The notes beneath the pieces are model-generated. The model did no database searches, was not told the DNA's origin, and was given only the letters and a program-made list of their open reading frames with translations. Positions 1,304-52,246 of a stretch of DNA of 64,000 nucleotides are shown here, piece by piece. Position 1 is the first letter of the stretch, and every line of letters starts with the position of its first letter. Source of the DNA: Dehalococcoidia bacterium (GTDB taxonomy: Bacteria; Chloroflexota; Dehalococcoidia; Lucifugimonadales; JAGWBF01); the NCBI GenBank assembly GCA_034422875.1, contig DAOUJI010000098.1, forward strand, positions 4,431 to 68,430, given 5' to 3'. Position numbers and translations under genes: made by a program.

Positions 1304-2296
1304 GTGACCGTCCTGTCTGAGACGGCTGTTAGAGAATCCATGACCAACGACAAGACCCGCCGCCAACCAACACCGTTCGCGAACTCATTGAGAAGGCACA
1401 TGGATGAGTGGCGTGAAGACGTTGGCAACCGTCGTCGCTCGTGGGCCAAGTGGACCGACGGCATCTATCACAACTACCGCACTTTAGCGGAGAAGTCTGT
1501 ACGAGCCGACTTTGTGAAGCTCCACGACCATCTGGCCAATACACTAAGTTCCCAGGCGTTCGCGTTCAACCTCTTTCTGCCTTTTCGAGAAGGAAGTAAG
1601 GAGAGATTGTCCGAGCGTTTCAGCCAGATGGTCGGCACTAGGCTGACCATCGACCAAGTACGCTTCGAGTGGGTGCCGCCCGGCGGATTGCTCGGCGAGT
1701 TGGATGGCGAACGTCCCGTCGGCAACGAGACGGCAACAGGGGTCGACGTGGCACTGTGGGGTTGGCTAGAGAACCGCCGCCGCGCCGCGGTCCTGGTAGA
1801 GGTCAAGCTGAGCGAGGGCAAGTTCACACATTGCTGCGGGCGTACCAGCAAAGGAAATCGGCGTAAGGACGTCTGTAACTCTGCGACGCTATTCCTGGAT
1901 GATCCCAACGCCTGTTACCTCCGGAGGCCGTTGAGAAAGAATCGAGACCGACGCTATTGGGAGATATTTTCAGGCAGCCACGGCAGCGTTCGTGATGCCT
2001 TCCCCCACGCTGACCTTGATGGTCCTTGCCCATTCGCTTACGACATGCAGCAACCCATGAGGAACCTCGCCATAGCCCAGGGTCTCGAACAAGAGGACAT
2101 AGTAGAGAATGCTTGGTTCGCACTCTGCGCGCACGACGAAAATCCGGATATCGCCGAGCATTGGGCTAACTGGAAGGGGCTCCTACCCGACCCGTCCATG
2201 GCTCCCTTGATCCCGGCTTCGGAGATCGTTGCTATCGGTGAGGCTGATGGGTTGAAGGACTGGGCCGCTTACATGCGTGCACGATACCGTCTGTAG
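1304..2296 (+). CDS. Hypothetical protein with a PD-(D/E)XK nuclease-like core
   Basis: 330-aa ORF with a GTG start. It contains GVDVAL...AAVLVEVKLSE, giving D at nt 1745-1747 and E-V-K at nt 1799-1807, the D...(D/E)xK pattern of restriction-endonuclease-fold proteins. An LSSQAFAFNLF helix lies upstream. No family name recognised. Confidence 0.55.
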   Translation: MTVLSETAVRESMTNDKTRRQPTPFANSLRRHMDEWREDVGNRRRSWAKWTDGIYHNYRTLAEKSVRADFVKLHDHLANTLSSQAFAFNLFLPFREGSKERLSERFSQMVGTRLTIDQVRFEWVPPGGLLGELDGERPVGNETATGVDVALWGWLENRRRAAVLVEVKLSEGKFTHCCGRTSKGNRRKDVCNSATLFLDDPNACYLRRPLRKNRDRRYWEIFSGSHGSVRDAFPHADLDGPCPFAYDMQQPMRNLAIAQGLEQEDIVENAWFALCAHDENPDIAEHWANWKGLLPDPSMAPLIPASEIVAIGEADGLKDWAAYMRARYRL

Positions 2297-2312
2297 GAGA
2301 ATCACGATAACG

Positions 2313-3263
2313 ATGCCAACGATCTCTTATAAACGCGCTCCCTCTAAGGGGTTGCAGGAGCTCCTGAAGCCAGGAAGGTTCTTGGCACCGCTGGTAGACC
2401 TCAACAAGCGGAAAGTCGGAGGCCACGAACACGACATGCATTTCGGAGTCGGTGACAAGGTTCATGGATATCGTGGCCTGACGAGAGTACTGACCGCTAG
2501 AAGGCTCCAGAATGGGTCTATAAGGATTACTGCCGATAAGAAGTATACTAGCCAGTCATGTGCAGCTAACCTCTTTAGGAAATGGAATACCGATGAGGCT
2601 GGCTTCAAGGGTACTCTAGATGCCTATCTGAATGACGTAGAGGTCAAACCACGATTCACCGAAGGAGAGGGTGCTGTCCAATCGCTATGGTCCCGAGTAA
2701 CGGAGCCATGGACCCCATTTGACCGCGAGGCCGCACTGGGTTTCCAGTCGGAGGCAGATCGGAAGAAGGCGAGGATGCCACCAAGAGTAAAAGACGCCCT
2801 AGATGTCCTCACCTGCCTCTATAAACGCCACACGGAAGCTGGGAAGCGATGGAGTAAGCCCAAAGCGACTGGCACCGAACTCGACCAACTTTCTGTCGAC
2901 GGGAGTGGTCGGCTGGTGCTTCTGGAACTCAAAGATGCGTCCAAACGCACCCACGAAGTCTATTATTCACCGTTCCAACTGTTGCAGTATGTCTGGGAGT
3001 GGCACAACGCGCTTGAAATGGTGCGAGACGACCTGCAGAAGCTGATTTCAGCTCGCGTGGCCGTGGGTCTGACACCTCCCAAAGTTCCCCAGCTCACCGG
3101 AGACATACGGGCCGCGATCGGTTTTGGCCCCGACTGTCGCACTCCTGAGATGAAGTGCCGCTACGACATGGTGCTGAAAATCGTCAACCAACACCTTCCG
3201 CCGGGCATGGCCGACATCGAGACGTGGGAGCATCCAACAACCGGGCCACAACAAGTGGCATGA
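2313..3263 (+). CDS. Hypothetical protein with a second, dissimilar PD-(D/E)XK nuclease-like core
   Basis: ORF 2277..3263. ATG at 2313 with AGGAG at 2295-2299 is preferred. It contains EGEGAVQSLW ... LSVDGSGRLVLLELKDAS, giving D at nt 2898-2900 and E-L-K at nt 2925-2933. It starts 16 nt after the stop of the upstream gene. Confidence 0.55.
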   Translation: MPTISYKRAPSKGLQELLKPGRFLAPLVDLNKRKVGGHEHDMHFGVGDKVHGYRGLTRVLTARRLQNGSIRITADKKYTSQSCAANLFRKWNTDEAGFKGTLDAYLNDVEVKPRFTEGEGAVQSLWSRVTEPWTPFDREAALGFQSEADRKKARMPPRVKDALDVLTCLYKRHTEAGKRWSKPKATGTELDQLSVDGSGRLVLLELKDASKRTHEVYYSPFQLLQYVWEWHNALEMVRDDLQKLISARVAVGLTPPKVPQLTGDIRAAIGFGPDCRTPEMKCRYDMVLKIVNQHLPPGMADIETWEHPTTGPQQVA

Positions 3264-3438
3264 GTACAAAACGTTTCCGGATTATGGCCTGCCCGGGATG
3301 ATAGCGGAAACGAACTTACTCTCGCTATGAAAAGAACCCTGCCCAGAGACCACACCCTATTGTCTGCTTACGTCTCCGCCATTATGATTGGGACGGCTTG
3401 AAGCCACTGGAACTGGATTAGAGGCTGGTAACCGCTTA

Positions 3439-4224
3439 ATGGACCTGGGTCTACTGGACAGGGTTGCTATAGTGGTCAATTCCAGCGATGGAATTGGCCG
3501 AGAAACGGCTCTTTCTCTCGCCCGAGAGGGAGTCAACCTGACCATAGTGTCCGACCACGAAGACGAATTGCGTCATACAGAACGGGAAATCTCAAGGGTC
3601 AGTTCCCAGCACAAGGTGCTGGCCGTACCGGGAGATACGCTCAGTTCCAACGGCGTAAGGCGAATAGTCAGAGGCACACACAACAGGTTTGGACGCATCG
3701 ACATACTGGTCAACAGCATCGGACAACAGCCCACCAAAGCCCCCTCCCTAATGGATGACCAGGAATGGGAGGACTCCCTTCAGCATAATTTCCTGAGCGT
3801 CGTCCGCATGTGCCGCGAGGTCATGCCCTACATGCAACAACAACAATGGGGAAGAATCATCAATCCTCTGTCCGCACCCGTGGGCCGCTCCTTCAAAGGC
3901 CGGGTCCTCTCCATATCCAACCCCACCGCCGTGTTGGGGTATTCCAAGATGCTGGCCGTGGAACTGGCCGCCTACAACATCACCGTGAACTCGGTGATGG
4001 CCGGAATGATAGACATAGAACCGTTAACCCCCTTCTACGAGGAGGCAGCCAACGACCAGGGAGCTTCTCTATCCGAAATCGTGAAGTCAGACATCCCTAT
4101 GCACCGCATGGGGAAGCCTGGCGAGATGGCCGACCTTATAACCTTCCTGGCTTCGGAACGCTCCAGTTACATCACTGGAGCAACGGTCCCGGTAGACGGC
4201 GGAGCCGTCCAGTTCCCCATCTAG
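3439..4224 (+). CDS. Short-chain dehydrogenase/reductase family protein (divergent motifs)
   Basis: ORF 3388..4224; the internal ATG at 3439 gives a normal SDR N-terminus (VAIVVNSSDGIGRE). SDR-like length and C-terminus (YITGATVPVDGG). The canonical TGxxxGIG reads NSSDGIG, and YxxxK is not evident (reads LGYSK). Confidence 0.7.
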   Translation: MDLGLLDRVAIVVNSSDGIGRETALSLAREGVNLTIVSDHEDELRHTEREISRVSSQHKVLAVPGDTLSSNGVRRIVRGTHNRFGRIDILVNSIGQQPTKAPSLMDDQEWEDSLQHNFLSVVRMCREVMPYMQQQQWGRIINPLSAPVGRSFKGRVLSISNPTAVLGYSKMLAVELAAYNITVNSVMAGMIDIEPLTPFYEEAANDQGASLSEIVKSDIPMHRMGKPGEMADLITFLASERSSYITGATVPVDGGAVQFPI

Positions 4225-5467: not shown

Positions 5468-5929
5468 TTGAGCAACCGCGCAGAGACAGACCGTGGAGGC
5501 CCCAACTGCGGAACACACTATCTCGTCTCTTGCGTGAGGCTTAAGGCGCCCAACCCAGCGCCAGCCAAAGACCTGTACATTTCCGACTGGTTCCGCAAAG
5601 CCCGGGCATATGTGGAGAAGACGGGCCAGCCGTGGTCCATCCTATCGGCGAAGCACGGACTTCTTCACCCCGATACGGTCTTGGAGCCATATGATAGGAC
5701 TCTAAGGACCATGCCCATCGACCAGCGGCGAGCCTGGGCTCAACGTGTATTAACAGACATTGAGCTCAACCATGGAGGCGTCGAGTCCTTCGTGCTGCTG
5801 ACCAGTCGACGCTATCGAGAATTCCTTGAGCCAGCCCTGCGGGAGAGAGGATTTTCTGTGCAAGTTCCCCTTAAGGGACTGCGGATCGGTCAACAACTGT
5901 CCTGGTTCAAGCGCCAACTCAGCCAATGA
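5468..5929 (+). CDS. Conserved hypothetical protein (DUF6884-like by recollection)
   Basis: 153-aa ORF with a TTG start. YLVSCVRLK...AKDLYISDWFRKARAY...WSILSAKHGLLHPDTVLEPYDRTL resembles the pattern I recall for DUF6884. No function known. The start codon is uncertain. Confidence 0.5.
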   Translation: MSNRAETDRGGPNCGTHYLVSCVRLKAPNPAPAKDLYISDWFRKARAYVEKTGQPWSILSAKHGLLHPDTVLEPYDRTLRTMPIDQRRAWAQRVLTDIELNHGGVESFVLLTSRRYREFLEPALRERGFSVQVPLKGLRIGQQLSWFKRQLSQ

Positions 5930-6438: not shown

Positions 6439-6723
6439 CTAGGTTGAGAATTGGAGTTTAACGCCGCATGCGGCTGAGACTTTTGCGAGGGTGTCGAGTC
6501 TTGGATGCCGTTGGCCTGACAAGGTACGCGACAGGGCCACGCGGTCTAGTTGGGCTTTTGCGGCGAGCATGGATACGCCTCCCTGAGCCATTGCGACATT
6601 ACGAAAAGCTTTCATAAGCAACCGGGGGTCGTCCCCCATTTCTTCAATCGCGGCATTTAAATATGCGGCGATGTCCTCAGGAGTTTTAAGATAATCGCTG
6701 GCCTTATGTTCTCTCACTGGCAT
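6439..6723 (-). CDS. higA: HigA-type antitoxin (addiction module antidote protein, HTH)
   Basis: ORF 6439..6870, trimmed to the ATG at 6723 (MPVREHKASDYLKTPEDIAAYLNAAIEE...LSRTLSGQRHPRLDTLAKVSAACGVKLQF). This matches the antidote family that follows HigB-like killers. It overlaps the toxin stop by 20 nt. Confidence 0.8.
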   Translation of the reverse strand: MPVREHKASDYLKTPEDIAAYLNAAIEEMGDDPRLLMKAFRNVAMAQGGVSMLAAKAQLDRVALSRTLSGQRHPRLDTLAKVSAACGVKLQFST

Positions 6724-7042
6724 TCCGTGTCTCCTGCTTGTATTCATTCCAAAGAGCCTGGGCGTTTCTGATGTCCCGGGCTTGCCCCCTCTTTGTTCCG
6801 CCTCCCAGCAACACCACCAGCGCTCCTCTATCGCGACCATAGTACACGCGGTAGCCGGGTCCAAAGTCAATACGAAGTTCGGAAACGCCTTTCCCTATAC
6901 CCTTATGGTCACCGAAGTCGCCCAACTCAATCCGGTCAATCCTCGTTTGGACACGGGCGCGAACTTGAGAGTTTTGGCGTCGAAACCAACGATCAAAGTA
7001 GTCTCTGCCCTCGTGGGTGACGTAATGAACGACCCGTAACAT
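6704..7042 (-). CDS. higB: HigB-like RelE/ParE-superfamily toxin (addiction module killer protein)
   Basis: 112 aa. ...RIDRIELGDFGDHKGIGKGVSELRIDFGPGYRVYYGRDRGALVVLLGGGTKRGQARDI... is the typical killer-protein pattern. The toxin-first gene order is HigBA-like. Confidence 0.8.
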   Translation of the reverse strand: MLRVVHYVTHEGRDYFDRWFRRQNSQVRARVQTRIDRIELGDFGDHKGIGKGVSELRIDFGPGYRVYYGRDRGALVVLLGGGTKRGQARDIRNAQALWNEYKQETRNASERT

Positions 7043-7115: not shown

Positions 7116-8681
7116 CTAGAACACCTGCTCCATGTATTCGCCGATTTCCGACAGGTGGAAGTCGGCCACCGCCACCTCTGGCGCCCACACTATCTGGTCG
7201 GAAGCCCAACGTATCGTGCCCTTGCGTTCCGCCCCAATGCCCAGGATGTTCCTCAGCACGTTGTGGATGTTCTCGTTCATGCGCAGGGTGTTTGGCTTGA
7301 TGGGAGCCGCCAGCTTGCCGTCCTTGATGACGTATGAGTCGCCAATGACCGTACCGCTGAAGTCTCCGGCTCCGATTCCGTTGACGGGATACGTGTACCA
7401 TATCCGCCCTATGTACAGGCCGTCGCCGACTCGTTGAAACAACTCCTCCTGCGAGCAGGGATCGCCGCTCTCAATGATCAGGTTGGTGGGGGTGACTCCT
7501 GGAGACGCATCGAAGTTGCGTCCTCCGCCTCTGCCGCTGCGGAAGCCGTTGCGGGGAGCCAACGCCGCGGCCGCACTCTTGGGGTCCACTCCCAACTTCT
7601 CGCTTCCCTTGGGGTCGTTAAGAAGGCGCTGGGTCTCGTAGTGGTTGGACAGAAGCCCCACGAGGGAACCTCCTTGGATCAGGTCAACCCTTCCTGTGGG
7701 CAGACCTTCGTCGGTGATGGCTTTGCTGGCCGCCAGCCCCGGCGCTGAACCGTCGTCATAGATGCTCAGTGTGTCGTGGGCTACCTGCTGGCCGAACTTC
7801 CCCATGTAGGTTGAGGCCCCGGCGTAGAACATCTCCGCATAGAGGCTCGGCATCAGAATCCACTCTAATATCTCGGTGAGGGTTTGAGGCCCAAGCACTA
7901 CGCGGTAAGCTCCTGTCTCAACCCTCTGGCCATTGACCGAGGCTATGGCGTTGCGGGCCGCGTCGCTTCCAGCTTCTCCAGTCAAGTCGACAAAACGATT
8001 TCCTACGGACCATCCGCTCCCCTTGGCAGCGGCGTCTTCCAGCATGGCAGTGGCGAAAGACATGACCAGCGTGGACTCGTCCGTCTGGACTGTGGGCATG
8101 TGAGTCGAAGCTATGGCCATCCGTTCCTGCAGCATGATGACGTCGCCGCCCAGGATGACTCCCAGGTCTCTGACCCCTTCCGGAGACCCTGCCAGGTTCA
8201 GCAAGTCCTCCGATGTTCCGATGGCCTCCAGAGCGCGCTCCACCGTCTGCCAGCCTGCCGCCACCATCTTTCCGCTGTTGACTCGCATTACCGCTGGATC
8301 ATGGTATTTAGATAACGTGGGAGCCTCTCCCGTGGGCTTGGGCAGGGACACATACTCCCTGTCCACCACAGCGCCCTGACGGGCCTTCTCCAAAGCGTTC
8401 CTCACGCCTTCCAGAGACAGGTCTGTCGGCTCACTCCCGAACCCGGTCTTGGTTCCATCTTCGGTAGGGAACGCCACACGTATCCCAAGGCCATAGGACT
8501 CCAACGACTTGGGCTCCTCCACACCGTTGCTGGGTATGCGGGACGTGTAGTTGAGCCGGACCGTCAGGTTGCCGTTGGCCGAGGCGAACACCTCGGCCTC
8601 CGATACGTCGGGTTGGGCGTTGAGATACTCCAACCCCTCTTTGACCGACTTGCTCAACCGGCTCATAGGCGTTAGGGGCAT
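7116..8681 (-). CDS. pmbA: PmbA/TldE family metallopeptidase partner
   Basis: 521 aa. TldD/PmbA-family length and C-terminal glycine-rich region. It lacks the HExxxH motif and sits immediately downstream of the TldD-like gene. Confidence 0.8.
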   Translation of the reverse strand: MPLTPMSRLSKSVKEGLEYLNAQPDVSEAEVFASANGNLTVRLNYTSRIPSNGVEEPKSLESYGLGIRVAFPTEDGTKTGFGSEPTDLSLEGVRNALEKARQGAVVDREYVSLPKPTGEAPTLSKYHDPAVMRVNSGKMVAAGWQTVERALEAIGTSEDLLNLAGSPEGVRDLGVILGGDVIMLQERMAIASTHMPTVQTDESTLVMSFATAMLEDAAAKGSGWSVGNRFVDLTGEAGSDAARNAIASVNGQRVETGAYRVVLGPQTLTEILEWILMPSLYAEMFYAGASTYMGKFGQQVAHDTLSIYDDGSAPGLAASKAITDEGLPTGRVDLIQGGSLVGLLSNHYETQRLLNDPKGSEKLGVDPKSAAAALAPRNGFRSGRGGGRNFDASPGVTPTNLIIESGDPCSQEELFQRVGDGLYIGRIWYTYPVNGIGAGDFSGTVIGDSYVIKDGKLAAPIKPNTLRMNENIHNVLRNILGIGAERKGTIRWASDQIVWAPEVAVADFHLSEIGEYMEQVF

Positions 8682-8730
8682 ATCACATCTCCCCTTTGGT
8701 ATTGGATGGCCATAAGCTGGGTGGGCAAAC

Positions 8731-10305
8731 TCACGCCGCCGGGCCAGTGAGTCGGGCGATGCCCCGCATGGTGGGTCCTCCGTTGCTCATGCGCTTGGCC
8801 TGCATGGGTTGGCCTTTTCCGCAGTTGGGCACGGGATACATCTTGAAATCGGAGCCAACGGCGTCGATGCTCATGAAGTAGTCCCTGGAGTCCGAGGTGA
8901 TGCCGCCGTCCCTGTACAACTGCCCCAACTGGCCGTTCTTTATCTCGTAGACCTTCACCGCAGTGATGCGGAAGTTTTCCCGAGCTTCCGACACGGACGG
9001 TATACGGTGGCCCGATACGTAATAGCCGTCCTCTACCTCACTGATAATCTGCTGAGGGTCTTGCGTTCCGGGTGCAAACACCGTGTTGGTCATGCGAATC
9101 AACGGAACCAGGCTGGCCTCAGTGGCGCGGGAAGAGCCGTTCGCCTCTGCCCCCAATATGGCGGCGGTCTGGCGATTGTTAAGGAACTCCTCCATGACGC
9201 CGTCCCGAATATGGTAGGCGCGCCGAGCTGGAGTGCCGTCATGGTCGTACATGAAGGACCCAAAACCCTCCATGGTGGGATCCGAGAAGGCGTTTACCAG
9301 AGGCGACGCGATGGGCTTGCCCATCTGATTGTCCTTCATGTCCCTGAAGAACCAGCTGCGCCCTGCGTAGGAGGTCTCATACTTCAACGCGCGGTCCAAC
9401 TCGGACGGATGTCCCACCACTTCGTGCACTAGAAGAGTGTTGAAATGGGGGTCGGTGACTACCGTCACTTCCTTGTCCGGGGGTTTCAACGGCGGAGCAT
9501 TGACCACCTCAACCGCATTGACCCCGAGTTGTTTGCAAAAGGAGACGAAGTCGGGCAGGACGATGGTCCCGTTGTCATAGCCCTCAGTAAGGATCTCCCA
9601 GCCCCGCTGATGTCCGGTGAAGTCATATATTTCCATTGTGCCGTGATAGGCGGCGCATATGGCCACGACGAACCCTTCAGTCTGGGCGAAGCTCTGGTCG
9701 ATGTCGGCTCCCTCGGAGCTGCAGAACAGCTCCCTCAGCATGAACGTTCCAGCCGAGGCCGCCGTATACACCACCTGGTCGCTGGCCTTGGCGGCCTTGC
9801 AGCCGTCCACCGCCATGGCCATCGCCTCTTCAAGGGACACGGACCGGGGATCAATCTGGAACGTGCCCTCGACCGTGTCATGAGCGATGGGCACGGGCGC
9901 CAGTACGGTGTTGGAAAGGCTGGCGCCTAATGCCCCCAGCCTCTTCCTGGAGGCCGCCTTCATCCTGGCGCTGGCCCTGGCCCGGTTGTGGGCCTGAGTG
10001 ATGCCTTCCATGACCACGTGGCCTATACGGTCGACGTCGGCGGCGCCGAGTATCCGGCCATAGAACCCTGGAGCGGTGACCCTGCCTCCGGAAATAACCC
10101 TGACGCCAAAATCGAACGCGTAGTCCTCTGCCGAGGCCTTCTCATTCCCGTTTTCGGCGACGGCTCCTTTTTCTTCCCGCACTTGCAGGCGGACGTCGCA
10201 GTATTCCAGCCCAGGGAGACGCTTGGCGTCATCGTTGACTATTGAGACCAGCTGGGGCCTGATTTTGTCCAGCAGACCCAGTTCCACTCTTCCAGTCATG
10301 TTCAA
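8731..10305 (-). CDS. tldD: TldD family zinc metallopeptidase
   Basis: 524 aa with the HEVVGHPSELD (HExxxH) motif. Paired with the PmbA-like gene. Confidence 0.85.
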   Translation of the reverse strand: MNMTGRVELGLLDKIRPQLVSIVNDDAKRLPGLEYCDVRLQVREEKGAVAENGNEKASAEDYAFDFGVRVISGGRVTAPGFYGRILGAADVDRIGHVVMEGITQAHNRARASARMKAASRKRLGALGASLSNTVLAPVPIAHDTVEGTFQIDPRSVSLEEAMAMAVDGCKAAKASDQVVYTAASAGTFMLRELFCSSEGADIDQSFAQTEGFVVAICAAYHGTMEIYDFTGHQRGWEILTEGYDNGTIVLPDFVSFCKQLGVNAVEVVNAPPLKPPDKEVTVVTDPHFNTLLVHEVVGHPSELDRALKYETSYAGRSWFFRDMKDNQMGKPIASPLVNAFSDPTMEGFGSFMYDHDGTPARRAYHIRDGVMEEFLNNRQTAAILGAEANGSSRATEASLVPLIRMTNTVFAPGTQDPQQIISEVEDGYYVSGHRIPSVSEARENFRITAVKVYEIKNGQLGQLYRDGGITSDSRDYFMSIDAVGSDFKMYPVPNCGKGQPMQAKRMSNGGPTMRGIARLTGPAA

Positions 10306-29390: not shown

Positions 29391-30107
29391 CTATTCAGCC
29401 TCGTCGTCGTCCGCACCCGCCTCCAACACCTTGTCCACGAACTCCTCTTCTGAAACGGCCCCCACTAGCTGGGCCTTGGGTAGGACTCCAAGCTTGCTCT
29501 CCTGGGTGATGACCGTCTTGGGAACGCCACGCACCTGGTACGTCTGGGCCAAGGCGGGGAATTCCTCCACCTCGATCACGTCGGCGGTTACGTTGGCGTT
29601 CTCCAACGCTATGGCGTGTGCAATCCGCGCCACACCGGGGCAGAAGCCGCACGACGGAGTCACAAACACCCGGATATGCACTGGTTTGCTGACCTTCTTG
29701 AGCTTTCTGCGGGAGTCCATGGACAGTGGACTAACGCCCCTGGATATGGTCTTGATGCCCGCTACGATAGTTGGGAATTCGAGGCCAGCCGGCAGTCCAT
29801 AGAACTTCAGACGTCCGTCGTTGTCGTCTCCCAGAACGATGGCCGGTATCTGCTCTATCCCGTACTTCTGCCTCTCCTCCGACTGGCTGTAGACGTCCAC
29901 GATGTCCAGGTGCAGTTTGGGGGAAAGGGACGTAAGCTCTTCCATAAGCTGCTGCGTCTGTGGGCAGTATCGGCACTCCCGCCCGGGGATGGTCAGCAGC
30001 GAGGAGCCCTGGGAAAAAAGCTTGATGGTTACCTCGTTCTTGAGGTCTTTGCGGAGTTCCCTTTTCAGGGAGTCCCTGTCTTTGTCCGGAATTATGGGCA
30101 TGTCCAA
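29391..30107 (-). CDS. Two-domain thioredoxin-fold protein disulfide oxidoreductase (PDO/glutaredoxin-like)
   Basis: 238 aa with two CxxC sites (CRYCPQ and CGFCPG), one in each half. Confidence 0.75.
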   Translation of the reverse strand: MDMPIIPDKDRDSLKRELRKDLKNEVTIKLFSQGSSLLTIPGRECRYCPQTQQLMEELTSLSPKLHLDIVDVYSQSEERQKYGIEQIPAIVLGDDNDGRLKFYGLPAGLEFPTIVAGIKTISRGVSPLSMDSRRKLKKVSKPVHIRVFVTPSCGFCPGVARIAHAIALENANVTADVIEVEEFPALAQTYQVRGVPKTVITQESKLGVLPKAQLVGAVSEEEFVDKVLEAGADDDEAE

Positions 30108-30269
30108 CCCCGACTATACGCTTTGAGTTTGCCCAGTTTACACCTTAAAAATCCCTTTTTCCACCCTTGCCGTCCGCCACAACCGCCGTTGAAGGGCTCC
30201 CTGTTTTGTGCTAATTTACCCACGGACTCTCCAGGGCCAAATCTTCAACTTGTTCTTAGGCGGTGCAGC

Positions 30270-31328
30270 ATGACCCTTAACTCCGACTCCCTTGTCTCCA
30301 GCCGCGTGGACGTCGCAGGCGACTTGGATGACGCCATCGAGATGTGCTACCAGAAGGGATGGACCGACGGCCTACCCGTGGTCCCCCCAACGGAAGAGAA
30401 AGTGCTCCGGTTCCTGGAGTTCGTGGAACGCGATCCATCGGACGTCATTGGAATAGAACCGGTGCGGGGCCGTGTCGTAACTGCGGAGAAGGTGGCCATC
30501 AACGCCGTAATGGCCGGATGCAAGCAAGAGTACATGCCCATCATCATGGCCTGTGTGGAGGGAATGGTCTTGCCTGAGTACAACCTCCACGGGAGCTCCG
30601 CCAGCACGGGAGGCTCGGCGCCCCTGCTCATCATCAACGGACCCATACGACAGAAACTGGGCTTTGCCTCGGGCAACAACCTCTTCGGCCCAGGACCTGA
30701 CCGCCGCCCCAACGCCACGGTGGGCCGGGCCATCAGGATGATTCTCATCAACGTGCTGGAGAACCACCCCGGAGTCCTGGACCGCTCCACACTAGGTCAT
30801 CCCGGCAAGTACAGCTTCTGCATAGCCGAGGACGAGGAAAACAGCCCCTGGGAACCTCTCCACGTGGAAAAGGGGTTCGACGCTGACGCCAGCACGGTGA
30901 CGGTGGCCGCTTCTCACGGCCCGCAGCAAATGGGCGTAGTCTGGGAAGGGACTCCCGAGGCCATGCTCATCAACATCGCCGACACCATGCTGGGCATCAT
31001 GCCGAGGCAGGGCGAGGTCATACTGGTCATGTCGATCGAACACAGCCACCTGTACAAGGACGCGGGGTGGTCCAAGCAGCAGGTGAAGCAGTTCGTCTAC
31101 GACCACGCCTGCCGCACCCACGAAGAATACGCGCGGGTGAAGAAGGTCGACCCACCTGAGCCCGGCCAGGAGAAGGAGCTTATCCACGCCATCGAGACCC
31201 CCGACGCCCTCACCCTGATTTCCGGCGGCGGCGCGGGAGGCCCTTGGGACTGCATCATCACCCGATGGGGCCGGGGCGTCACGTCCAAGTCCATTACCAA
31301 GCAGATAGACACCAGCAAGATTCTTTAG
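30270..31328 (+). CDS. Conserved hypothetical protein (no function recognised)
   Basis: C-terminal 352 aa of the 570-aa ORF 29616..31328. The upstream part of that ORF is antisense to the PDO gene and is rejected. ATG at 30270. Sequence ...QKGWTDGLPVVPPTEEKV...AINAVMAGC...NLHGSSASTGGSAPLLIINGP... looks like a real conserved protein. Confidence 0.6.
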   Translation: MTLNSDSLVSSRVDVAGDLDDAIEMCYQKGWTDGLPVVPPTEEKVLRFLEFVERDPSDVIGIEPVRGRVVTAEKVAINAVMAGCKQEYMPIIMACVEGMVLPEYNLHGSSASTGGSAPLLIINGPIRQKLGFASGNNLFGPGPDRRPNATVGRAIRMILINVLENHPGVLDRSTLGHPGKYSFCIAEDEENSPWEPLHVEKGFDADASTVTVAASHGPQQMGVVWEGTPEAMLINIADTMLGIMPRQGEVILVMSIEHSHLYKDAGWSKQQVKQFVYDHACRTHEEYARVKKVDPPEPGQEKELIHAIETPDALTLISGGGAGGPWDCIITRWGRGVTSKSITKQIDTSKIL

Positions 31329-49411: not shown

Positions 49412-52246
49412 ATGCCGTCCCAACCAGGGAACATGGAGACAGTCCGTGAGGAGGTGGTCAACACTCTTCTTGCTCAGTCGCTCCGTGAGCATGGGCTGTC
49501 GGCAAGGGGAGAACGTCGTAGTCGGCAACACATTCCCGACTTACGGGTCGAGTTGAGAACCAAAGACCTTGTACTGTTGGAGTGCAAGTGGGAAGGGTCA
49601 ACAGGGCCTCTACAAGACCAACTACAAGAACGCTTGACACATTTCCCAACCGCTCTAGCCGTATGTGGCGTACTCTATCCAGACCGGTTACGACACTTCG
49701 AGAACACCAAAGAAGCGCTTGACGCCGCGACAGACCTACAGTGGTGGTTGTACGGCTCCCGCGGTGTAGCTTCATCGGACATCCGCATACGAACAGGGTC
49801 GGTGGCCGAGCTTGCCAACCATCTACGCACCCTTCCTCTGGCACTGGAGGGCATCGACCGAGTCGCGGCGGCGGCTGGCGTCATAGGATACGCCATCGAA
49901 CAGGCGGCTCAAGCAATTGGGGATCACGCCAGAATCTCCCGCCGCATCGCCGACATTATTGCCGACACAGACCAGGAGAAAAATCGCCAAGCCGCACTTC
50001 GCATAGGGTGTTTGGTCCTTTTCAACGCCATCGCATTTCAAGACCGTCTAGCTGCCGCAAACCACGATGTCCCGACTGTCAACGAATCCCAACGAGAAGG
50101 AATCTCGGGACTAAAAGACGCTTGGCGAGATATTTGTAACAACATAGACTACGTGCCTGTCTTCGAGCTAGCAGCAGACATTCTGGACGTGCTTAGTGAT
50201 GGGCCGTCCGAGTTGCATACATCAGTCACCGCTCCTCTTGTCAAAGCTATGGAAGACACCCACAGGCTGGAGGGACACGATCTGTCGGGACGGCTATTCC
50301 ACACCCTGCTAACCGACGCTAAATTCACTGGAGCCTACTACACGTCCGTCCCTGCAGCTACCCTCCTGTCCAGACTGGTGTTCCACAACTGGCCTCCGAA
50401 CATTGATTGGAAGGACCACGAGTTCCCTGCGTCACTTAACGTCGCAGACCTGGCATGCGGCACCGGTACGTTGCTAATGGCCGTGGCTTCCGAAGTCGAA
50501 CGACTGCACACCCATGCGGGAGGTCGACGCGCCGCGGATCTGCATAAAGCTATGGTAGAACAAGCGCTTCATGGTTATGACGTACAGCTTTCGGCTGTTC
50601 ATTTCGCAGCCACCAGCTTGGCCATGCTCAACCCCAACATACAGTTCGACCGAATGAATCTCTACGTGATGCCCATAGGAGCTGACAGTGCCAAAGTGTC
50701 ACTCGGGTCGCTTGATTTCCTTGGGGTTGACGAGGCAGCAGTCCAATTCGCATTATCTGCAGAAGGGATGGGAAGCAACGCACTAAGCGCGACCAGCGCC
50801 GAACAGGTGTCAGGTAGCGGTCCGAAAGGAGCCGAAGAAGGCGTAACAGCCAAGTTGCCGGACTTGGATCTGGCAATTATGAACCCTCCTTTCACACGCT
50901 CGGTAGGCGGCAACCTACTATTCGGCAGCCTGCCTCAGACAGACCGTCGGAAACTTCAGGACGAGCTATCTCGTCGATTGAAGTCACGGCAAGCATCCGC
51001 AACCGCAGGCCTTGGCGCGGCCTTTGTTGCTGCAGCTTCGCCTAAATTGCGGCCGGGCGAAGGACGATTGGCCCTAGTGCTGCCTGCCACCGTTTGCACC
51101 GGGCCATCATGGGAGCAGACTCGCTCTCTTATTGAAAAGGACTTTGTCCTAGACATGGTAATCACGTCCCACGACCCTCTGCGATGGAACTTCTCAGACA
51201 GCACTGACTTGTCCGAAGCCCTGTTAGTAGCAACTCGGCGGCCCGAGATCAACGACACCGTCGACCACCGGACTGTCTTTGTAAATCTCTGGCAAAACCC
51301 GGACGGAGTGTTGGACGCTCACAGAGTTGCCCAAGCGGTCACGTCGACCACTCCGGCTAGACTGGAAGAGGCGGGCACTGCACTACTGGAAGTTGACGGA
51401 CATCACATCGGAGAATTGTTTGCCATCCTGGAATCCAAAGTCGCCGGAACGAAGTGGGCCGGGGTGCAATTCGCTCGCGGTGACATGGTGCGCTCTGCCC
51501 TTAAGCTACTGGATGGCAGCGAAGTCTGGATCCCGGGCGAGACAGAGTCGGCCATCATTCCTTTGTGTCGCCTGGATGAACTTGGAGAAGTAGGACCCGA
51601 TAGACGTGATGTCTGGGATGGATTTGAACGAACAGACGCTGTCACAGCTTATCCGATGGTCGAGAACCACGACACGAACGCAAGAAAGCACTTGACGACC
51701 AATCCCGACAAATACCTGTCCCCACTCTCTCAAGCTCGTCCGGGCCGTCAACTGAAGCGGATCGAACAACTATGGCCAAAGGCAGGGAGACTCTTCATCG
51801 CTGAACGGCTGCGCCTTGATACCACTAGAATTATCGCCATGTGGTCGGAATCCAGAGCTCTGTCCAACGTATGGTGGCCGATCCGAGTCGAAGACAACTC
51901 GGTAGAGAAAGCACTTACCGTTTGGTTGAATTCAAGCTTGGGCTTGCTCACGATTCTGGCACGAAGGACCAGCACTGAGGGCGGATGGGTGGCTATGAAG
52001 AAAGCTGACTTGGAAGAAATGCCAGTCCTCGACGTGCGCCTCCTTGCGGAGTCGCAGCTTCAGAGTCTAACTGACTTGTTCGACTCACTGGCTGAAGAGG
52101 AATTCGAACGGCTGCCTGGAATGGACCATTGCCCGGTGCGACGAGCACTGGACGACGGAATCTCCCAAATTCTCGACCTGCCTGACCTCGCCAACCTTCG
52201 CAGTCTTCTGGCATCCGAACCAGTAGTGTCCAACAGAAGATTATAG
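49412..52246 (+). CDS. Single-chain PD-(D/E)XK nuclease + N6-adenine-type methyltransferase fusion (Type IIG/IIL restriction-modification-like)
   Basis: 944 aa. N-terminal IPDLRVEL...LVLLECKWE (D43, E57, K59; nt 49538-49588). Motif I VADLACGTGTLL (about nt 50445-50480). Motif IV NPPF (nt 50881-50892). Long C-terminal region of unknown fold. Confidence 0.6.
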   Translation: MPSQPGNMETVREEVVNTLLAQSLREHGLSARGERRSRQHIPDLRVELRTKDLVLLECKWEGSTGPLQDQLQERLTHFPTALAVCGVLYPDRLRHFENTKEALDAATDLQWWLYGSRGVASSDIRIRTGSVAELANHLRTLPLALEGIDRVAAAAGVIGYAIEQAAQAIGDHARISRRIADIIADTDQEKNRQAALRIGCLVLFNAIAFQDRLAAANHDVPTVNESQREGISGLKDAWRDICNNIDYVPVFELAADILDVLSDGPSELHTSVTAPLVKAMEDTHRLEGHDLSGRLFHTLLTDAKFTGAYYTSVPAATLLSRLVFHNWPPNIDWKDHEFPASLNVADLACGTGTLLMAVASEVERLHTHAGGRRAADLHKAMVEQALHGYDVQLSAVHFAATSLAMLNPNIQFDRMNLYVMPIGADSAKVSLGSLDFLGVDEAAVQFALSAEGMGSNALSATSAEQVSGSGPKGAEEGVTAKLPDLDLAIMNPPFTRSVGGNLLFGSLPQTDRRKLQDELSRRLKSRQASATAGLGAAFVAAASPKLRPGEGRLALVLPATVCTGPSWEQTRSLIEKDFVLDMVITSHDPLRWNFSDSTDLSEALLVATRRPEINDTVDHRTVFVNLWQNPDGVLDAHRVAQAVTSTTPARLEEAGTALLEVDGHHIGELFAILESKVAGTKWAGVQFARGDMVRSALKLLDGSEVWIPGETESAIIPLCRLDELGEVGPDRRDVWDGFERTDAVTAYPMVENHDTNARKHLTTNPDKYLSPLSQARPGRQLKRIEQLWPKAGRLFIAERLRLDTTRIIAMWSESRALSNVWWPIRVEDNSVEKALTVWLNSSLGLLTILARRTSTEGGWVAMKKADLEEMPVLDVRLLAESQLQSLTDLFDSLAEEEFERLPGMDHCPVRRALDDGISQILDLPDLANLRSLLASEPVVSNRRL

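Follow-up and report, generated by a model that had tools for sequence, protein, structure and literature searches.

A 64,000-nucleotide (nt) stretch of a Dehalococcoidia bacterium genome (NCBI GenBank assembly GCA_034422875.1, contig DAOUJI010000098.1, positions 4,431 to 68,430; hereafter the window) carries two adjacent genes, here called A and B, which lie on the same strand, flanked by a CoA_transf_3 gene (29-1258) on one side and an SDR gene (3388-4224) on the other. Judged from the Pfam matches of A and from the predicted fold and invariant catalytic residues of B, both products are PD-(D/E)XK nucleases, in agreement with an earlier reading of the bare DNA sequence (the sequence-only reading), which had called both nuclease-like. 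Their homologues are inherited together, co-evolve, and in some genomes form a single fused gene. Our preferred interpretation, to which we give about an even chance, is that the two products act together as a two-subunit nuclease defence module in which a conserved effector (A) works with a variable NucS/Shedu-like partner (B) independently of a methylase.

A pattern-based scan of 185,579 species genomes revealed 36 B loci, a rare and patchy distribution over at least seven phyla that includes Dehalococcoidia and other Chloroflexota, Binatia, Bryobacterales, Nitrospinota, Myxococcota, and Alpha- and Gammaproteobacteria, with several sponge-associated bins. A adjoined B in 20 of the 36 loci, 16 in the order A-B and four in the order B-A, and these loci came from Chloroflexota, Binatia, Acidobacteriota, Myxococcota, and Alpha- and Gammaproteobacteria; one further B locus retained a 23-amino-acid (aa) remnant of A. 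Among metagenomic A loci, B lay directly 3' of A in 9 of the 13 that could be evaluated. The four B-A loci share one reading frame, three of them as single open reading frames (ORFs; L010, L018, and L028) and the fourth (L033) frameshifted within B. Fusions were found in both orders, B-A in L010, L018, L028, and P0241 (650 aa) and A-B in P0300 (617 aa). Two of the B-A fusions are paralogues with 75% identity that lie ~131 kb apart in one Dehalococcoidia genome (L010 7989-9908 and L028 ~7995-9899, OZ244723.1). Pairwise identities of A and B were correlated across 24 loci (r=0.78), with 0 of 2000 Mantel permutations as high, and mean identity over these loci was 0.59 for A and 0.47 for B, which marks A as the more conserved and B as the more variable partner. 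Because of the adjacency, the fusions in both orders, and the correlated divergence, we regard A and B as a functional unit; the co-occurrence of the two families, which the sequence-only reading had proposed to survey, is borne out.

The genes and their predicted features in the window are as follows, with residue numbers for A counted from ATG 1340.

1340-2296, + strand: gene A, 318 aa, PD-(D/E)XK protein, Pfam REase-ARP / PDDEXK_13 (330 aa if translation began at the alternative GTG 1304)
1745-1807, + strand: catalytic core of A, with D136 (1745-1747), E154 (1799-1801), and K156 (1805-1807); strands 135-142 and 148-156 in the model
1829-2128, + strand: Cys-rich insert that separates strand 3 of A from the Q-helix and may hold a metal (Zn or Fe-S) site
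2295-2299, + strand: AGGAG ribosome-binding site of B as read from the sequence, overlapping the A stop and 13 nt ahead of ATG 2313
2313-3263, + strand: gene B, 316 aa, NucS/Shedu-like PD-(D/E)XK protein with an extra N-terminal domain, outside named families
2313-2660, + strand: N-terminal alpha/beta domain of B (aa 1-116), with two helices, a four-stranded meander, and linker helices in the model; no family match
2667-2690, + strand: helix alpha-1 of the B nuclease core, EGEGAVQSLW, helix 119-126 in the model; E119, G120, Q123, and W126
2739-2876, + strand: helical insert of B (aa 143-188), its most variable segment, with a mean column conservation of 0.39 vs 0.78 in the core
2883-2933, + strand: catalytic strands of B, with D191 (2883-2885), E205 (2925-2927), and K207 (2931-2933); strands 190-196 and 201-207 in the model
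2976-2990, + strand: QxxxY motif of B, Q222-L-L-Q-Y226, at the start of the long helix 219-251 that follows strand 3 in the model

B had no match in Pfam, NCBIfam, PADLOC, PHROGs, or PDB sequences, with Pfam and PADLOC giving none even at E<=1. All of its 332 close homologues lack a Pfam domain or an informative name, and clustering at 50% identity divides the family into 663 clusters within a library of 1.84 billion proteins; those that bear a name are all called 'hypothetical protein'. A Foldseek comparison of the AlphaFold2 (AF2) model of B (pLDDT 96.7, pTM 0.92) with the PDB gave the Shedu protein SduA as the top match (8ps5_A, E=7.8e-4, probability 0.99), followed by NucS, SfsA, FokI, AdnA, EndoMS, Exo5, and Vsr, nearly all of them PD-(D/E)XK nucleases; TM-scores were low (0.25 for SduA), the likeness being confined to the core. 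The N-terminal domain is a candidate recognition, sensor, or dimerisation domain.

Alignments of 30 and 95 B sequences showed D191, E205, K207, and Q222 to be invariant and Y226 to be at least 90% conserved. The EGEGAVQSLW helix, to which the sequence-only reading had drawn attention, proved real, with Q123 and W126 invariant in both alignments and E119 and G120 invariant in the smaller (n=30) and at least 90% conserved in the larger (n=95). Of the motif assigned to B by that reading, E205-x-K207 stands, while the Asp has to be moved: the residue chosen, D196 (2898-2900), is conserved at ~90% and is Asn in P0063. A profile search aligned 'vDqlavdsegrLvllELK' of B with residues 155-182 of Pyrococcus abyssi NucS over 28 residues (E=1.4, not significant), in a register that sets D191 opposite NucS D160. 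Since D191 is invariant and falls in the NucS D160 register, whereas D196 is replaced by Asn in one homologue, D191 is more likely than D196 to be the catalytic Asp. The QxxxY motif is also found in RecB/Cas4/NucS-type nucleases. A and B showed no detectable similarity to each other (hhalign probability 0.7%), as had been stated from the sequence.

A matched PF22558 (REase-ARP) with 79 bits (5.8e-22), spanning nearly the whole Pfam model, and PF20796 (PDDEXK_13) with 68 bits (1.1e-18), against a cut-off of 27 bits each. The statement of the sequence-only reading that neither family could be named therefore holds for B and not for A. Its placement of the D...ExK motif of A was right: D136 and K156 are invariant among 75 homologues, and E154 is at least 90% conserved. 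The Cys-rich insert is conserved like the catalytic core (0.77) and contains five Cys that are invariant in the same homologues, C165 (1832), C179 (1874), C192 (1913), C230 (2027), and C263 (2126). The proposal that this segment after the EVK motif is a metal-binding or sensor insert is thus upheld as far as its conservation goes, and the five Cys would fit a putative metal site. In the AF2 model of A (pLDDT 89.5), the order of secondary-structure elements, read by eye, is consistent with a PD-(D/E)XK core, and weak structural matches were obtained to MspI, Cas4-like ACE1, NucS, alkaline exonuclease, UL24, and RecU. The fold of B is a nuclease fold and that of A probably is, in contrast to the non-nuclease folds that the sequence-only reading had named as speaking against its proposal.

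The six B loci L019, L022, L023, L029, L035, and L036 have, as the upstream co-oriented gene, not A but a gene for a 415-467-aa protein with Lactamase_B_2 and RMMBL domains (at 6675-7922 in L036), and the slot of A is evidently taken there by this beta-CASP-like metallo-beta-lactamase (MBL) protein. Beta-CASP proteins belong to a group of end-processing nucleases. The MBL family is very large and strongly conserved, with more than 7,600 matches at E<=1e-10, the top ones being 69-84% identical. Three of four sampled members (L057-L060) are followed on the same strand by a gene of ~300-350 aa with D...E[AV]K in a strand-like context, one of these genes being PDDEXK_4, and for the fourth the NucS-like neighbour is encoded on the opposite strand. 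A has a similar neighbour in L047 and L048, where the next protein is not B but one with 'VDLWGCSPDGRVAHLIELK'. The ~300-aa genes beside other A or MBL genes were considered as B homologues and rejected, with hidden Markov model and hhalign comparisons not significant and the D..ExK motif the only common feature; PADLOC gave nothing on these alternative partners save weak candidate-family matches (PDC-S26, PDC-S11, Cas4) for two of them. An MBL protein with a ~300-aa D..ExK partner may represent a general two-nuclease architecture of which B is one such partner. Tentatively, and with less confidence than we place in the defence function of the pair itself, the pair could exemplify a larger unnamed class of methylase-free two-nuclease immune modules, in which a conserved executioner (REase-ARP or beta-CASP-like MBL) is followed by a diverse ~300-aa NucS/Shedu-like PD-(D/E)XK partner that sets recognition and is swapped by recombination or fused.

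A family of ~190-260 aa without a Pfam assignment adjoins B in four loci (L014 7129-7923, L015 1615-2244, L007 8961-9524, and L013 10464-11090). It showed a subthreshold likeness to REase_DpnII-MboI (E=0.01-0.08) and may be a third kind of nuclease partner.

The relative L055 showed 88.5% DNA identity to the window over 6 kb and kept the order CoA-transferase, A, B, SDR, and M24 peptidase. DNA identity was 0.91-0.99 in the flanking genes, 0.86-0.95 in A, and 0.58-0.72 in most of B, the lowest values (0.58-0.59) extending across nt 2550-2850. Synonymous divergence (dS) was 0.14-0.33 for the flanking genes and A and 0.72-0.75 for both halves of B, and the ratio of nonsynonymous to synonymous divergence (dN/dS) was 0.19 for A and 0.21-0.35 for B. 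Because of this excess of dS over that of A and the flanks, the comparison, which concerns one genome pair, suggests that a diverged allele has taken the place of B, and of B only, and that B has remained under purifying selection. The possibility that B is a pseudogene in L055 was rejected, the apparent split being a run of 10 N.

Since each has hundreds of homologues and dN/dS against L055 takes the values given above, both ORFs are evidently genuine genes. A ends with TAG at 2294-2296 and B begins with ATG at 2313, leaving 16 nt between them, and the layout described from the sequence alone (two co-oriented genes between a CoA-transferase and an SDR gene, a 16-nt gap, and AGGAG before the second gene) was confirmed. 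The size of 316 aa then given for B is also correct, its homologues aligning from ATG 2313. For A, the 330 aa then given is probably too long: its homologues are 318 aa, covering 96% of the 330-aa form, and A of the syntenic relative L055 was also called as 318 aa, so A most likely starts at ATG 1340 rather than at GTG 1304. The lower GC and codon character that had been noticed by eye exists as a mild dip, with a GC of 0.563 for A and B together vs a window mean of 0.586 (standard deviation 0.021), at the 10th percentile of 2-kb windows. GC at third codon positions was 0.67 for A and 0.60 for B; the CoA-transferase and TldD-like genes reached 0.75, and the SDR and M24 genes directly downstream had 0.66-0.69. 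Promoter and terminator scans of the locus gave counts not above those of shuffled sequence, and a search for bordering repeats as marks of a mobile element gave just short matches, of a kind often due to chance.

The surroundings of the pair were surveyed through 121 flanking proteins of 35 loci, for which families are given as the best 25 of 87. The flanks vary among genomes, and the sole recurrent family among these proteins was the MBL-fold protein. Methyltransferases (MTases) were limited to one Type II MTase and two of the small-molecule type (Methyltransf_11), and no DNA methyltransferase is conserved beside the pair, which agrees with the absence of a cognate methylase reported by the sequence-only reading. 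A few neighbours were defence-like (Dsr1, PDC-S11, PDC-S44, and PDC-S05), and two were transposases. Insertion sequence (IS) elements interrupt B in L017 and adjoin it in L005. In L037 (7495-8285), on a contig labelled as a Klebsiella pneumoniae metagenome-assembled genome, all that is left of the pair is a short piece of A (aa 72-121) beside a short piece of B (aa 104-182), evidently a decayed A+B relic; the contig may be mis-binned, our impression being that its GC is unusually high for Klebsiella. Several copies seem to be frameshifted.

Two further loci showed unusual arrangements around one member of the pair. In L002 (6287-7788), A is broken by a ~1.5-kb insert that codes for a collagen-repeat and trypsin-like protein. 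In L032 (6130-7826), a SmaI-like Type II restriction endonuclease (REase) gene lies directly upstream of B (PF17411, 7e-7; PADLOC REase_II, 2e-20); it was considered as an alternative partner of B and set aside as more probably part of a separate Type II system, and the ORF that precedes it is, at a guess, a methyltransferase. The L032 arrangement recalls reported Shedu genes inside restriction-modification loci.

Comparison with known systems placed the pair near several of them and inside none. Shedu provides the best structural neighbour of B, and Shedu proteins and B alike have a C-terminal PD-(D/E)XK core, a variable N-terminal region, and no methylase. Shedu genes often lie beside restriction-modification systems and transposable elements (bioRxiv 10.1101/2023.08.10.552793). 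B differs in having no Pfam DUF4263 or PADLOC match and in resembling SduA in the core only; moreover, Shedu is described as a single-gene homotetramer, whereas B is paired or fused with a second, unrelated nuclease. With NucS/EndoMS, B shares the succession of an N-terminal domain and a C-terminal PD-(D/E)XK domain, the QxxxY motif after strand 3, and 'vDxlavDxxGxlvllELK' strands in the same register (D191, E205, and K207 of B against NucS 155-182). However, the sequence match is not significant, no Pfam NucS match was obtained, and NucS is a stand-alone repair enzyme, whereas B comes paired with A. The N-terminal domain of NucS is a half-barrel, unlike the four-stranded meander with helices predicted for B.

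For A, the matching family REase-ARP (PF22558) has been described and predicted as a conflict-system effector (PMC9503650), in a different genomic context, and the B family is unnamed. The source of that prediction is Iyer et al. 2022 (Viruses 14:1977, PMC9503650), in which an REase effector is predicted in ARG/rhodanese-phosphatase conflict systems that would counter viral ADP-ribosylation and in which the REase gene adjoins an ARG and/or rhodanese-phosphatase gene, often together with a Nudix or WYL regulator; we infer that 'ARP' in the Pfam name refers to this association, and no publications on REase-ARP, PF22558, PF20796, or PDDEXK_13 were found in the literature searched. Unlike the predicted systems, the locus has no ARG, rhodanese-phosphatase, Macro, NADAR, Nudix, or WYL gene, and ARG, rhodanese-phosphatase, Macro, and NADAR were likewise absent from the best 25 of the 87 families matched by the flanking proteins. 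The A subfamily also pairs with B and is well conserved (60-89% identity among homologues), not fast-evolving as described. Heterodimeric Type IIT REases (BbvCI, Bpu10I, and BslI) have two different PD-(D/E)XK subunits encoded by adjacent genes, with cognate methyltransferases. The pair resembles them in its two dissimilar subunits, its adjacent genes, and the presumed cutting of one strand by each subunit, and differs in having no linked methyltransferase and no detected sequence similarity to them. AddAB and AdnAB are hetero-oligomers with two RecB-type nuclease sites, and AdnA is among the fold matches of B; A and B differ from these in having no helicase or ATPase domain. A Cys cluster beside a nuclease core occurs in AddB and Cas4, whereas the Cys of A are spread through the insert after strand 3 with other spacing. 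The A-B pairing, the fusions, and the MBL alternative were absent from PADLOC v2 and from the literature searched.

If A and B are a defence module, the pair would move between genomes as a two-gene cassette and act against invading DNA. B would be the recognition or licensing subunit, reading a DNA feature in the manner of SduA or NucS; such a feature might be a modification, a free end, or DNA that is branched or mismatched, the likeliest target being a DNA end or structure. A would be the conserved effector, and a metal site with Cys ligands in the insert would stabilise it. Within the complex, a double-strand break would arise from one cut by each subunit, or else target engagement by B would switch on A. 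Self DNA would be spared since it is without the feature that B recognises, not through methylation. The effector slot could be filled by an unrelated nuclease (the beta-CASP-like MBL protein), and the partner slot would be exchanged via recombination.

The traits that we count as those of a conflict system are the patchy loci, the variable contexts, the paralogous copies, the IS elements and relics, the displacement of A by MBL, the defence-like neighbours, and the replacement of B. Several observations weigh against a defence module. The PADLOC v2.0.0 models, which the sequence-only reading had proposed to run, gave no match for A, B, a B-A fusion, or the MBL partner, and apart from the few defence-like neighbours the flanking genes are mostly housekeeping, so that enrichment in defence islands is weak; of the uncharacterised two-component defence system suggested by that reading, the two-component part stands and the defence role is circumstantial. 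The pair lies amid metabolic genes in the window and, holding the same site in L055, has been vertically inherited for some time. Some of the broken-looking copies may be assembly artefacts, a caution called for because the split B of L055 is a run of N. Foldseek found no neighbour of the A model in the PDB or BFVD at E<=0.001, and the nuclease assignment of A is therefore drawn from its Pfam matches and motif. The sensor and effector roles of B and A derive from one kind of evidence, their relative conservation.

The sequence-only reading had also suggested a modification-dependent (Type IV-like) restriction module, in which the N-terminal domain of B would recognise DNA that is glucosylated or has a modified base, with cleavage by the A-B complex confined to modified foreign DNA. 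This would agree with the lack of a conserved methyltransferase beside the pair, and the N-terminal domain of B together with its fast-evolving insert could be the reader. However, nothing specific points to such a module: neither A nor B carries an SRA, EVE/ASCH/PUA, YTH, Mrr, McrB, or GmrSD signature or matches a PADLOC Type IV model, and what SduA and NucS, its nearest relatives by structure in the case of B, are described as reading is the ends or the structure of DNA and not modifications. We consider it unlikely; it is a special case of the defence reading and not an alternative to it. A role as a repair or recombination accessory, with NucS-like B and its partner processing mismatches, flaps, or broken ends for the host, also strikes us as improbable. 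B does resemble NucS/EndoMS, Exo5, AdnA, and Vsr, all repair nucleases, A adjoins an OGG-type glycosylase in one locus, the beta-CASP proteins that replace A belong to end-processing nucleases, and the pair is chromosomal, with neither A nor B found in IMG/VR viral contigs, INPHARED phages, or PLSDB plasmids. Against these stand a very sparse and patchy spread across phyla, synteny that differs among genomes (the sequence-only reading had associated housekeeping repair with conserved chromosomal synteny), two diverged copies in one genome, IS disruptions and relics, a B allele replaced with a dS twice that of its flanks, and displacement of the partner elsewhere, and since such features are unusual for a housekeeping repair gene, we regard the repair role as less likely.

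That the pair is a selfish addiction (toxin-antitoxin-like) cassette, one nuclease being toxic and the other neutralising it or keeping it harmless, seems to us distinctly unlikely. Its compact two-gene operon with a 16-nt gap and its horizontal transfer would fit, one gene of the two often looks decayed, and the 4 kb around it include a HigB/HigA-like pair and a PDC-M57A-like gene; however, both proteins have invariant catalytic residues, which would not be expected of a mere inhibitor, an antitoxin with a turnover rate different from that of its toxin is hard to square with stable fusions in both orders, and no match was found in plasmids. Very improbable in our judgement is an orphan heterodimeric Type II REase of the BbvCI type whose methyltransferase lies elsewhere in the genome. 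The two different PD-(D/E)XK subunits side by side recall such enzymes, and a 944-aa ORF with an NPPF motif is located 46 kb away, but that ORF has no Pfam methylase match, no linked MTase was found in 35 loci except the one belonging to a separate SmaI-like system, and the MBL displacement and variable partner fit a sequence-specific restriction-modification pair poorly.

Should the pair indeed serve in defence, the methylase-independent immune repertoire would gain a compact nuclease module of two genes. The module would split into a conserved effector, which has a conserved Cys cluster, and a variable partner, and the natural fusions would suit structural work. It would also give a first functional handle on the B family (~660 clusters, all 'hypothetical') and perhaps on the very large MBL family, whose genes are arranged likewise. 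Most carriers belong to uncultured Chloroflexota, Binatia, Myxococcota, and sponge-symbiont lineages, whose defence repertoires are poorly sampled by screens in E. coli and Bacillus.

Other genes in the window were also recorded. A 570-aa ORF at 29616-31328 (+ strand) has no Pfam match at E<=0.001. The 944-aa ORF with the N6-methylase-like 'NPPF' (nt 50882) extends over 49412-52246 (+ strand) between a TPP enzyme and a molybdopterin oxidoreductase; it has no Pfam match at E<=0.001 and no PDB sequence match, its NPPF is the only one in the window, and it is possibly a divergent methyltransferase. At 6439-7042 (- strand), a Gp49/HigB-like gene (PF05973) overlaps a helix-turn-helix (HTH) 'addiction module antidote' gene (PF21716 and HTH_3), forming a probable toxin-antitoxin pair. 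The gene at 5468-5929 (+ strand) encodes a DUF6884 protein (Pfam 9e-50) that matched the PADLOC candidate PDC-M57A (1e-36) and, weakly, DpdC. Its DNA identity to L055 is 0.73-0.80, against ~0.95 for its neighbours, and L055 has an extra GIY_YIG_3 gene adjoining it; 2 kb from the pair, this would be a second variable spot of defence-like character.

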